A DNA stretch of 12,718 nt from a virus (IMGVR_UViG_3300029577_000207); one strand, 5' to 3'. Counted from the stretch's first letter, positions 2,530-4,991 are shown. Translations and numbers: made by a program. The notes: generated from the sequence alone by a model not told the origin.

Positions 2530-2560
2530 AAAATAAAAACAAAAACCCGCCGAAGCGGGT
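2530..2560 (-). terminator. Rho-independent terminator of the hokD transcript
   Basis: Hairpin ACCCGC-CGAA-GCGGGT at 2545-2560 followed on the - strand by TTTTTGTTTTTATTTT. A second 9-bp-stem hairpin (2601-2622) lies between the hok stop and this terminator, as expected for a hok mRNA 3' fold-back element. Confidence 0.75.
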
Positions 2561-2629
2561 TAAGTGCGGGTGCGTTGAGGATGCCTGCCACATCAGAGGT
2601 GGCGAGGGATTTCTCCCTCGCCGGGTCTC

Positions 2630-2989: not shown

Positions 2990-3467
2990 TATGAAATCAG
3001 TCAGAAAGGCGATCCATAAGAACAATAGCAAGACAATAAATCGCCATTACAGCCGTAATAGCCAGCGCACATTTGAGAACCAGCACCACAACCTCCTGTA
3101 TTGGACGTACACCAGTCCTGATGAATATGAGGCTGTCTCGTCAGTGATTCAATACAACTATTGGGTATAGTTTCTCTGATTTTTTCTGTGGAAATGGGGC
3201 TCAACCACTAGTCACCACCTGCACTTCTTTTAATACGCAAAGTCCGACACAAGCTAACCTTTTAGTCCGCTTTGAGCGAACAACGGAAGTTCGGAATAAA
3301 TACTGACATAGACGTGTTTTCTTGCGGTGGCCAGTTTTTGTTGACCACTTCATTGTACCTAATCTTGGAGGTTGATCAGTTAACCCTCATTATTGCGGGT
3401 TAACTGAAGTTAGGCTTACTGTGTATAGATAAAACAAGCGTTTTTCCAAGTTACCTTAGAAAAAGCC

Positions 3468-4400
3468 TTAAGTTAGAAGCCGTTCCTCGTAATCGTCGGT
3501 TGTGGGCATTTTTCCGATCTCTGTCATGCGACACACTAATCGGGATAAAAGCACTCGTACCTCAATTATATGCTCAACTAAAAAGTTATCTGACGTAGCT
3601 CCCCCATGCACTGCCTTCGAACGGTAGTCATACAGCTTCTTAACCCTACGATAGGTGGCTAAACGATCAGGCCCTCGCTCCTCAAGATATGCTGCGGCCA
3701 TAAGAGCAAGACGAAAACGAAGCTCTGAATTGATTCCAAAGAGCGCTTCAAATCCTGCCCATAAAGCAGCAGCAGCCATTCTCAAATTCGCGTGTTGGTT
3801 GTGAGTAGTTAAAGAATCAATAGCGAGCCGGAATGCTGGTTGCTCTAGCAGATCTATCCAACGCTTGAGATTCTCTTGAACCCAGTCGAGAGACTCTACT
3901 GATATCTCTACACTTGGGCTTATTCTCCGAACTGCCGGCACGTCCTCAAGAAGTTGGACTTCACACGAGTTGGCTTGAAGAGCAGGGAATACATCCCAAG
4001 ATGCACTTGCTACTGCAGGAACAAGTATATCGGTGAGTGTGCGGCATCGGATCGCGGATATGATCCACCATCCGATAGTCAGGTCTGATTGAGAAAATTT
4101 CGACTCACTGCTTTGCAACGCAAGCTCATGCGTAACTGCGGGCATATGACGAGCAACAGCGCTGAGTAGCGACTTGCTCTTAAGCGCTTTGGCTAACTCT
4201 ATCTCTCCTGGTGGATGAAGTACCTCCCTTAATTCACCTACGTCTTGGAAAACATAAGGCCCGTTTCGAAACGTCAATCCTGACAAAGCGAAACAGATCT
4301 CATTCTGACTGGATAAACTAGATATTCGAGTTGCAGCGTATTTCTTGCGAGACTCGAAGTAGTTAAGTAAACCTGACAATTTTTCTTTGTTGATTTCCAT
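3468..4400 (-). CDS. Orphan 310-aa hypothetical protein; candidate HEPN-like effector (C-terminal R-x4-H-G motif)
   Basis: Uninterrupted 933-nt ORF with long non-coding flanks (189 bp upstream, about 620 bp downstream). No family recognised; motif YDYRSKAVHGG at residues about 258-268 (nt 3606-3623), about 50 residues from the C-terminus. Weak Shine-Dalgarno. Confidence 0.7.
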   Translation of the reverse strand: MEINKEKLSGLLNYFESRKKYAATRISSLSSQNEICFALSGLTFRNGPYVFQDVGELREVLHPPGEIELAKALKSKSLLSAVARHMPAVTHELALQSSESKFSQSDLTIGWWIISAIRCRTLTDILVPAVASASWDVFPALQANSCEVQLLEDVPAVRRISPSVEISVESLDWVQENLKRWIDLLEQPAFRLAIDSLTTHNQHANLRMAAAALWAGFEALFGINSELRFRLALMAAAYLEERGPDRLATYRRVKKLYDYRSKAVHGGATSDNFLVEHIIEVRVLLSRLVCRMTEIGKMPTTDDYEERLLT

Positions 4401-4422
4401 ATTCCCAAGCTTAGAATTTTCG

Positions 4423-4450
4423 CTATTGTGTACCGTATATTACACAATAG
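4423..4450. promoter_or_regulatory. Perfect 10-bp inverted repeat (candidate operator or RNA hairpin) upstream of the 310-aa gene
   Basis: CTATTGTGTA-ccgtatat-TACACAATAG, 23-50 nt upstream of the ATG at 4400, flanked by AGCTTAG direct repeats. Confidence 0.5.
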
Positions 4451-4589
4451 CTTAGTTAGGGCGTAGGCGTCCGCTTTTGGCACAAAGCGGACAACCACGC
4501 CAGATCTACCCTGTGCCATGAAAAATGAGAATGTCAATTCACTCCTGAACTAATGCTTTTTAATCTAGTAACGTCTAAAATACCTAACA

Positions 4590-4991
4590 TTATCCCTGAT
4601 AAAATGCCAGTATGCGCTGCATAACTTCACTCATCCGGCACTCGCGACAGATTATGTTTAGGCGACTGTCGTAGCGACGTATTTCTCCATCAGGTAACGA
4701 CCAGATAAGGTCCGGATCAATCACAGCTGTTTTCTTCACCTTTGCCCTCGAGAGTTTTTTGCGGGCGTTTTGCCAGTCCTTACGCGCCTGTTCAGACGGG
4801 AATAACCCGTAACCAGAGCTGTATACATCGCCACTGGCAACCAGCTCTCTGGCCAGAACGCTCATCAGATATCTTGTTGCCCCAGTTTTAGCTTCCAGTT
4901 GTCGTAATGTCTCGCGCCCACTCTGGCGTACGAGTTCCACCACCTGCCCTTTAATTTTTTCCCGCTCTTCTTGTGTAAAAACTTTTGCCAC
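4590..4991 (-). CDS. Small (133 aa) protein with a predicted N-terminal winged-helix DNA-binding domain
   Basis: GTG start at 4991 with GGAGGA immediately upstream, 40 nt after the O-like stop. N-terminal region QVVELVRQSGRETLRQLEAKTGATRYLMSVLARELVASGDV has the pattern of PapI/FaeA-like winged-helix regulators (pattern-level similarity only). Confidence 0.65.
   Translation of the reverse strand: MAKVFTQEEREKIKGQVVELVRQSGRETLRQLEAKTGATRYLMSVLARELVASGDVYSSGYGLFPSEQARKDWQNARKKLSRAKVKKTAVIDPDLIWSLPDGEIRRYDSRLNIICRECRMSEVMQRILAFYQG

Follow-up and report, generated by a model that had tools for sequence, protein, structure and literature searches.

The 189-bp spacer at positions 4401 to 4589 of a 12,718-nucleotide viral stretch (IMGVR_UViG_3300029577_000207; the whole stretch analyzed is termed the window) is probably a seam between two evolutionary units, at which a phage backbone meets a block of exchangeable cargo DNA. 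We favor an account in which a 24-nt hairpin within the spacer, termed R, and a related hairpin at the far end of the cargo, termed L, delimit a slot for exchangeable cargo, while a perfect palindrome that also lies in the spacer stands outside that machinery. Judged by its sequence, the window is an mEp460/Qin-like lambdoid prophage of Escherichia coli. An initial annotation had described the spacer as an intergenic region with a perfect inverted repeat and a second hairpin upstream of an orphan gene. Its extent was confirmed, as it falls between two minus-strand genes (3468 to 4400 and 4590 to 4991). The features concerned are as follows.

3265 to 3288, no strand assigned: L-type boundary hairpin, GTCCGCT-TT-GAGCGA-AC-AACGGAA, GTCCGCTTTGAGCGAACAACGGAA; left edge of the slot, with a degenerate 3′ arm.
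3289 to 4468, minus strand: mobile cargo of ~1.18 kb, comprising the HEPN gene with a 68-nt upstream flank and a 179-nt downstream flank; at least 99% identical in three contexts.
3468 to 4400, minus strand: gene for a 310-amino-acid (aa) protein whose N terminus forms an uncharacterized alpha/beta domain and whose C terminus forms a HEPN domain; the first base of the ATG is 4400.
4469 to 4492, no strand assigned: R-type boundary hairpin (the second hairpin of the initial annotation), GTCCGCT-TT-TGGCAC-AA-AGCGGAC, GTCCGCTTTTGGCACAAAGCGGAC; right edge of the slot.
4493 to 4589, minus strand: backbone, 3′ flank of the DUF977/Ren-like gene, holding TGTGCCA (4512 to 4518) and a lone TTGACA (4537 to 4532).
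4590 to 4991, minus strand: DUF977/Ren-like exclusion protein gene, 133 aa; last backbone gene before the slot, its 3′ end towards R.

The seam was located from the edges of homology on its two sides. The HEPN gene was detected in two further E. coli chromosomal island contexts with an identical protein (WP_042058399.1) and at least 99% identical DNA, once adjoining the pao operon beside a tRNA fragment and once within a large defense island. An alignment of the three contexts was unbroken from ~3265 to ~4490 and was lost beyond both ends. Prophages from hundreds of E. coli genomes that lack the HEPN gene matched the window either from 4468/4469 rightwards or from the left up to ~3298, and the homology to phage mEp460 began at 4468. 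While the cargo was found in 26 to 27 E. coli genomes, the segment from 4469 to 4589 was common to about 420 genomes of this species with other cargo. These edges of cargo and backbone homology indicated that 4469 to 4589 is backbone and 4401 to 4468 is cargo, and that the second hairpin is placed exactly on the junction between them.

This hairpin had been reported as a 7-bp stem at 4471 to 4490. It is real but longer, with nine perfect pairs, GTCCGCTTT/AAAGCGGAC (4469 to 4477 with 4484 to 4492), around a 6-nt loop and an imperfect extension out to 4453 to 4508. The pattern GTCCGCT-N6-14-AGCGGA was present in none of 200 shuffles of the window. No U tract follows R, L or either of the two 11-bp palindromes of the cargo on either strand, and a terminator scan was blank at all four hairpins; an intrinsic (Rho-independent) terminator was ruled out for each of them by this lack of a T run and of a terminator-scan match. 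A sigma-54 reading of the TGGCAC loop was ruled out by inspection, as the GG-N10-GC spacing is not present.

In scans for the hairpin family, the GTCCGCT-N6-14-AGCGGA pattern recurred in viral contigs and in genome contigs, at least 120 of each. Two types, R (GTCCGCTnnTGGCACnnAGCGGAC) and L (GTCCGCTnnGAGCGAnnAGCGGA), dominated the shared-stem matches in the viral contigs, and the stems and loop cores of both were conserved; the first of these scans yielded at least 64 copies of the L type and at least 61 of the R type, conserved in stem and loop. A later count, made on 124 viral-contig loci (the shared-stem scan loci and four fetched with the HEPN protein, with up to two arm mismatches allowed), gave 100 R and 96 L copies, 16 R-spacer-L doublets, of which 12 had a spacer of 18 nt, and 43 distinct cargos running from L to R (median, 1442 bp; range, 339 to 3465 bp). 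The segment between the 3′ arm of L and the 5′ arm of R was variable directly from arm to arm at many loci on at least three backbones. The genes pointing at R were DUF977, a P2-type tail-fiber assembly gene or an umuC-like gene. Hairpins of the R and L types occurred in only one or two places per E. coli genome and were confined to mobile elements.

In the backbone of the window the slot is situated between the replication/ren genes and hokD. Other cargos in the slot of this backbone included a retron type I-C RT-Toprim, a HAD hydrolase pair, PDC-S39 (a PADLOC candidate with a DUF7380/DUF4209 protein, encoded on the opposite strand), a protein whose Pfam match to the HEPN/RES N-terminal domain (HEPN_RES_NTD1) was weak and below the cutoff, and several unknowns. 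A homologue of the HEPN protein at 78% identity (L141 to L143) is encoded directly behind an R hairpin; next come a degenerate R-like hairpin and, after it, a DUF7380/DUF4209 (PDC-S39-type) gene, the cargo type found alone in this prophage slot in other strains.

The same pair of hairpins was detected in phage P2. An R-type hairpin (GTCCGCTTTTGGCACAGAGTGGAC, minus strand, one arm mismatch) is present at 15335 to 15358, past gene G, and a degenerate L-type hairpin (the reverse complement of GTTTCCTTTGAGCGAGAAGCGGAA) at 17432 to 17455, before FI and the F operon; hence, the pair flanks fun(Z). Inverted repeats flanking fun have been described and were proposed to enable site-specific recombination (Nilsson et al. 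2004, as relayed in PMC8987985). Going by that relayed account, R belongs to a conserved family of repeats that bound cargo slots and that had been noted at P2 Z/fun in 2004. The sequences on either side of fun(Z) are those of R and L, and the layout is also the same, running from the 3′ end of a backbone gene through R, a variable defense cargo and L to the next backbone operon. Unlike in P2, the pair described here is located in a lambdoid prophage, between a ren-like gene and hokD, and also in arrays on chromosomal islands. We know of no demonstration of recombination at the P2 Z/fun repeats.

A side observation concerned the R loop, in which TGGCACA (4478 to 4484) is complementary to TGTGCCA in the backbone (4512 to 4518), about 27 nt away. 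The P2 counterpart of this pairing (15310 to 15350) is 10 nt long, GGCACAGAGT/ACTCTGTGCC, so that two backbones seem to conserve an alternative pairing incompatible with the R hairpin. It was not seen in a third backbone.

On sequence grounds, the locus L002 (NZ_CM176497.1, E. coli Eco_23-2667) is a cassette array. Between 3295 and 7135, within a defense island, single genes for a GNAT acetyltransferase, several unknowns, DUF8087, DUF4160 and the HEPN protein are divided from each other by R, L or R-18 nt-L hairpins. The array is integron-like in appearance, without attC cores or intI. An exact scan of one genome per species returned, among the matches listed, mostly Xanthobacteraceae and other Hyphomicrobiales; further matches listed were from Pseudomonas and the Enterobacterales (Pantoea, Klebsiella, Citrobacter, Leclercia, Phytobacter, Mixta and Shimwellia). 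In metagenome-assembled genomes of the Xanthobacteraceae/Hyphomicrobiales, which are soil Alphaproteobacteria, the exact R-type hairpin was present in several copies per genome, often just past gene ends, and was followed after ~20 nt by another hairpin, which had an identical stem but a loop of GGGGGTAA or GACCCAA. This architecture resembles that of doublets of repetitive extragenic palindromic (REP) sequences. A search for the hairpin strings turned up no relevant paper in the literature library that was searched.

The points of changeover between backbone and cargo were mapped using the four variable loop positions, two on each side of the 6-nt core, in pairs of loci with the same backbone flank and different cargo. 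For R, the last two (backbone-side) loop bases were identical in 61 of 70 pairs, while the first two (cargo-side) bases were identical in 14 of 70, against a background of 16 to 22%. For L, identity of the first two (backbone-side) bases was observed in all 37 pairs and of the last two (cargo-side) bases in 9. The HEPN cargo kept its own loop bases in all three of its contexts (L ...AC, R TT...), and the backbone-side bases changed. The sharing of backbone-side but not of cargo-side bases indicated that the mosaic breakpoints lie in the loop cores TGGCAC and GAGCGA or at their edges. The breakpoints would then fall outside the stems and outside long flanking homology. Breakpoints in the loop core are the trace expected of hairpin-directed recombination and do not identify its agent.

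The slot is variable, its edges are exact, the same hairpin pair is found at other hotspots, including P2 fun(Z), and the breakpoints are in the 6-nt loop cores. R is a cargo-exchange boundary element, and its most likely role is as a site of cargo exchange. In the mechanism proposed, single-gene cargos, mostly of a defense type, would replace one another between R and L; the hairpins themselves would be the sites of exchange, probably in the form of extruded or single-stranded hairpins; and the agent could be a recombinase or, alternatively, a hairpin-directed break or template switch. As R is located just past the 3′ end of the backbone operon, it may additionally act in a REP-like manner, as a barrier at the RNA 3′ end. 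We put forward only tentatively a broader version of this account, according to which R and L are sites of an undescribed form of cassette exchange that cuts and rejoins in DNA hairpin loops without a known integrase and that moves single defense genes among lambdoid phages, P2-like phages and chromosomal cassette arrays of the Enterobacterales. Such a system would have a common ancestry with the two-hairpin repeats of the Xanthobacteraceae and would parallel integrons in function while having a distinct mechanism.

Alternatively, R (and L) could serve the backbone chiefly as a structural element in RNA or DNA, whether as an insulator, as a factor-dependent terminator or as a 3′ barrier of the REP type, at the end of the ren-like transcript, with the cargos being swapped by short-homology recombination of the Red/RecET type through the conserved 23 bp. 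We consider this doubtful, although the position of R is in keeping with it: the backbone gene upstream of R always points its 3′ end at the hairpin, which is 20 to 100 nt past that end. The sense-strand spacer RNA is strongly structured (z = -4.65), the doublets resemble REP sequences, bacterial interspersed mosaic elements (BIME) and REP doublets forming hairpins (REPIN), and extragenic copies are numerous in the Xanthobacteraceae. The prophage also carries an exonuclease/recombination module, and Rad52-type phage recombinases reportedly make use of short, diverged homology. A structural element of this kind is, however, difficult to reconcile with the absence of a U tract on both strands, with the blank terminator scan or with the mere one or two copies per E. 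coli genome. The longest reading frame of the 43 cargos was in one orientation in 27 cases and in the other in 16, indicating that the hairpins do not serve cargo expression. Moreover, the breakpoints gather in the 6-nt loop core and not over the full 23-bp identity, and the loop sequence is conserved over unrelated backbones, which is suggestive of sequence-specific recognition.

Several observations weigh against R and L as sites of exchange. Stem variants consisted mostly of G-U wobbles with few double compensatory changes, and the conservation of the stems was chiefly at the sequence level; pairing is therefore plausible, and selection on pairing is unproven. An empty slot was not found, as none of 421 genomes with this backbone had both flanks within ~600 bp of each other, and no product of insertion or excision was thus observed. 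The search for a recombinase gave none. Integrase genes near the L002 array were present only as fragments within 49 kb, and the alphaproteobacterial copies had no recurrent transposase-like, recombinase or REP-associated tyrosine transposase (RAYT) neighbor. The breakpoints are deduced from four variable loop positions only, and hypervariable positions could mimic part of the pattern; for the same cargo on different backbones, only four to five pairs were compared. Finally, we infer from the P2 sequence that the fun(Z) repeats of 2004, as relayed, are the same as R and L.

The shuffling of defense genes at fixed phage and host hotspots is an open question. In a study of P2/P4 hotspots the exchange pathway was left open as unknown, with cos-proximal recombination being the subject of speculation, and no mention was made of boundary hairpins or repeats (PMC9122126). 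The slot described here is similar to those hotspots in being a fixed site between conserved phage genes that holds diverse defense systems, most of them of one or a few genes and retrons among them, but differs in being located in a lambdoid early operon, far from cos. Our results suggest that one 24-nt hairpin pair marks hotspot edges in two unrelated phage types and in chromosomal arrays and that the exchange points fall in a 6-nt loop core. The present analysis documents the boundary repeats in a lambdoid prophage and in chromosomal arrays and maps the breakpoints to the loop. R and L also provide a simple sequence handle for harvesting candidate defense genes, one of which is the HEPN-fold protein, which is listed in no defense database.

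Likenesses to other modular systems were also considered. As with integron cassettes and their attC sites, there are promoter-poor single-gene cassettes with short imperfect palindromes between them, and arrays (L002) are formed; attC palindromes are thought to act as folded single strands, as is proposed here for R and L. Unlike in integrons, there are two hairpins with identical stems and different loops, and cargo is carried in both orientations. Inspection of R, L and the R-18 nt-L doublets revealed no RYYYAAC/GTTRRRY cores, and neither intI nor attI was found, integrase fragments within 49 kb of L002 being the only trace; an identity with attC was rejected. REP, BIME and REPIN sequences are likewise extragenic palindromes of 23 to 24 nt, often paired with a short spacer, past the 3′ ends of genes and with many copies in some Alphaproteobacteria. 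R and L differ from them in lacking a GTAG-type 5′ tetranucleotide and are not known to be related in sequence to the E. coli REP consensus; membership of this group was rejected on the one or two places per genome in E. coli and on the lack of a RAYT-like neighbor cluster for the several copies in Xanthobacteraceae. The pdif modules of Acinetobacter plasmids (XerC/D sites) are comparable in having a discrete cargo bounded by short palindromic recombination sites on many backbones, but R and L bear no resemblance to dif (11-6-11).

The palindrome of the spacer, to go by its relatives, is a lineage-specific element that is private to one cargo allele and does not form part of the exchange machinery. 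Three features of the cargo and its surroundings are relevant to it.

4422 to 4451, no strand assigned: perfect palindrome (11 + 8 + 11 nt) within the cargo, 22 to 51 nt upstream of the ATG.
3376 to 3407, no strand assigned: second perfect 11-bp palindrome, TCAGTTAACCC-N10-GGGTTAACTGA, 61 nt past the HEPN stop codon and still inside the cargo; no U tract.
4390 to 4417, plus strand: promoter-like site TTGATT-16-TAGAAT, on the opposite strand to the gene; predicted start at ~4424, where the palindrome begins.

A perfect inverted repeat with 10-bp arms had been noted at 4423 to 4450, 23 to 50 nt upstream of the start codon. Its perfection held; its length was underestimated, as the arms are of 11 bp, GCTATTGTGTA (4422 to 4432) and TACACAATAGC (4441 to 4451), with 8 nt between them. 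The view that this length is unusual held only in part. In dinucleotide-preserving shuffles of the window, perfect inverted repeats whose arms reached 11 bp or more around a loop of 3 to 20 nt were present in 13 of 200 (6.5%), so that the palindrome by itself is only mildly unusual, but there are two such repeats in a single 1.2-kb cargo. The two palindromes bracket the HEPN reading frame.

The fold of the palindrome (-14.9 kcal/mol, z = -4.7) was significant only in the allele of the window, the upstream folds of relatives having z values between +0.2 and -1.1. Alignable upstream sequence was present in two relatives, L129 (88% protein identity) and L139 (83%), in which 7 of 12 and 6 of 11 positions, respectively, were complementary; changes in the dyad were not compensatory, such that the linear sequence was kept while the dyad and the fold were lost. 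In homologues at 74 to 78% identity (L131, L135, L140 and L141) the upstream region was unrelated, with one group again being placed behind an R hairpin. A search of host genomes for the same palindrome, as had been recommended, found a 64-nt stretch including it in 27 of 5426 E. coli genomes, each time as a single copy and always with the HEPN gene, and no genome had a second copy. Half-site matches in the window were no commoner than expected by chance (at least six matches in 18 of 200 shuffles), and no 6-mer was shared with the immunity operators in the cI/cro intergenic region of the prophage. Searches of Rfam produced no family at 4401 to 4589 even at an E value of ≤10, and a structured cis-regulatory RNA is not indicated, as there is no Rfam match and the stem is not kept in relatives.

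Scans of the gene's strand with a consensus and a weight matrix bore out the earlier statement that the gene has no convincing sigma-70 promoter pair. The consensus scan detected no sigma-70-like site on the minus strand between the two genes, and the best weight-matrix score in the last 68 nt of the cargo on this strand was 5.5, as compared to a median best score of 6.5 per 220 nt. The lone TTGACA does lack a usable -10 element, as had been observed, but is located at 4537 to 4532, one base from the 4538 to 4533 given previously. As there is no convincing sense-strand promoter, read-through from the upstream early operon is possible, in agreement with the initial annotation; the associated proposal of control at the palindrome found no support in the comparative tests. 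A weak, non-consensus promoter overlapping the palindrome on the gene's strand is possible. On the plus strand, TTGATT-16-TAGAAT was the sole consensus-scan match between 3300 and 5100 and had a weight-matrix score of 10.6, above the 90th percentile. A -10-like hexamer occurs at the same position in L129 (TATATT) and L139 (TAAAAT), in differing surrounding sequence. As roughly one in ten or fewer 220-nt stretches reach a score of 10.6 and chance occurrence in AT-rich DNA is possible, which counts against reading much into this site, a plus-strand start at the palindrome is a lead and not a finding.

The palindrome had been considered typical of a dimeric-repressor operator or of an RNase III/riboregulatory stem. 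We do not think that it is a repressor operator, and control of the HEPN gene in this manner is improbable. Such an operator would be consistent with a perfect dyad of 11-bp arms situated before the ATG, where a core promoter would have to lie, and the half-site ATTGTG resembles those of the LacI/GalR type. Against this, the dyad decays asymmetrically in the relatives at 88% and 83% identity and is absent at 74 to 78%, there is no second copy among the E. coli genomes, the prophage immunity operators are unlike it, the cargo encodes no recognizable DNA-binding protein, no gene-strand promoter overlaps it, and the centre-to-centre spacing of the arms, 19 bp, does not fit LacI/GalR or CRP geometry. 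The loss of dyad and fold in relatives argues equally against an RNase III or riboregulatory stem, and a classical RNase III site would require a stem longer than 11 bp. Nor do the two hairpins of the spacer form one regulatory unit, as R stands with unrelated cargos in either orientation and also flanks P2 fun(Z). Every comparative test run on the operator reading went against it. Striking as its symmetry is, the palindrome probably does not serve as a conserved regulator.

A better fit than an operator is either a stem-loop in a leader or a young, functionless palindrome. With low confidence, we propose that the palindrome may act as a stable stem-loop (at the free energy given above) in the leader of transcripts that cross the 5′ flank of the cargo, which would be either early-operon read-through on the gene's strand or a divergent transcript from ~4424. 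It may equally be young and without function, and the present comparisons do not distinguish an RNA role from no role, a point that also tells against the leader proposal. That it is such a functionless palindrome, made by template switching (quasi-palindrome correction) out of an imperfect inverted repeat in an ancestor, is a possibility to which we attach limited weight. Related alleles hold an imperfect repeat at the same place (6 to 7 of 11 to 12 positions complementary, with no significant fold), the perfect form is restricted to one closely related set (at least 99% identical), and perfect 11-bp repeats arise in shuffles at the rate given above; however, the second perfect palindrome across the same gene makes two accidents less likely, and three alleles cannot polarize the direction of change. 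A 5′ stem-loop of a small divergent or cis-antisense RNA, transcribed on the plus strand from ~4424 through the palindrome and R and countering the HEPN mRNA like a type I antitoxin, seems improbable. The best promoter-like site of the region, the kept position of its -10-like hexamer in L129 and L139, the need for control of a lone HEPN toxin without a protein partner and the adjoining hok/sok locus would be in accord with such an RNA, but no plus-strand terminator follows, the RNA would miss the ribosome-binding site and start codon, neither L129 nor L139 conserves the 5′ hairpin, AT-rich DNA near start codons often mimics promoters, and no Rfam family matches.

Likenesses of the palindrome to CRP, LexA, TyrR, LacI/GalR and N15 telO sites were ruled out on spacing or symmetry. 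The arm CTATTGTGT also resembles the outer arms of telRL of phage N15, CTATTGTGTG; this was judged to be a coincidence, there being no protelomerase in this type of prophage.

The gene downstream of the spacer is not an orphan. Searches with the 310-aa protein detected 220 homologues at an E value of ≤1e-3, and it is a member of phrog_28161, while sequence searches of Pfam, NCBIfam, PADLOC and the PDB gave no match. A four-helix HEPN fold with a conserved Rx4-6H motif was present, the Rx4H motif being RSKAVH at residues 260 to 265. The product is a probable ribonuclease of the abortive-infection or defense type. The cargo consists of this single gene, with no partner gene and no recognizable helix-turn-helix protein. 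HEPN/MNT toxins, AbiV and Csm6 are the nearest comparisons, from which it differs in having an N-terminal alpha/beta domain of ~160 aa without a recognized relative, in the absence of MNT or another partner gene from the cargo and in matching no model in Pfam, NCBIfam or PADLOC.

The wider gene order was taken from a near-identical annotated copy of the prophage, which runs from an antiterminator through RusA, DUF968, rem, hokD, the HEPN-domain protein, DUF977 and a replication protein to YdaT, a Cro/CI pair, ydfA, dicB, ydfD, an exonuclease, an excisionase and an integrase. By this order, the early operon runs along the window's minus strand. The viable phage mEp460 shares this backbone. The DUF977 protein matched a PHROG annotated as a Ren-like exclusion protein, and the spacer was for this reason placed at the position where the nin region of lambda begins. 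In the Qin prophage of K-12 MG1655, a single L-type hairpin, GTCCGCTAAGAGCAAGAAGCGGAA, is present between flxA and ydfW (about 1646972 to 1646995). Qin is rearranged here, with relBE, ydfV and flxA, and its relBE-hokD region differs in arrangement from that of the prophage in the window; it was therefore uninformative for comparison of the slot.

Past the slot, the sok antitoxin RNA (Rfam RF01794) was detected at 2780 to 2954 on the minus strand, scoring 115 bits against a gathering score of 59, and was the only family above its gathering threshold between 2400 and 5200. It lies upstream of a hokD homologue (about 2630 to 2785), indicating that a hok/sok type I toxin-antitoxin locus is the first backbone unit beyond the slot. 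Just downstream of hokD, a weak match to the isrK Hfq-binding RNA (2540 to 2621, minus strand; 25.7 bits, gathering score 50) probably reflects a structure resembling a terminator.

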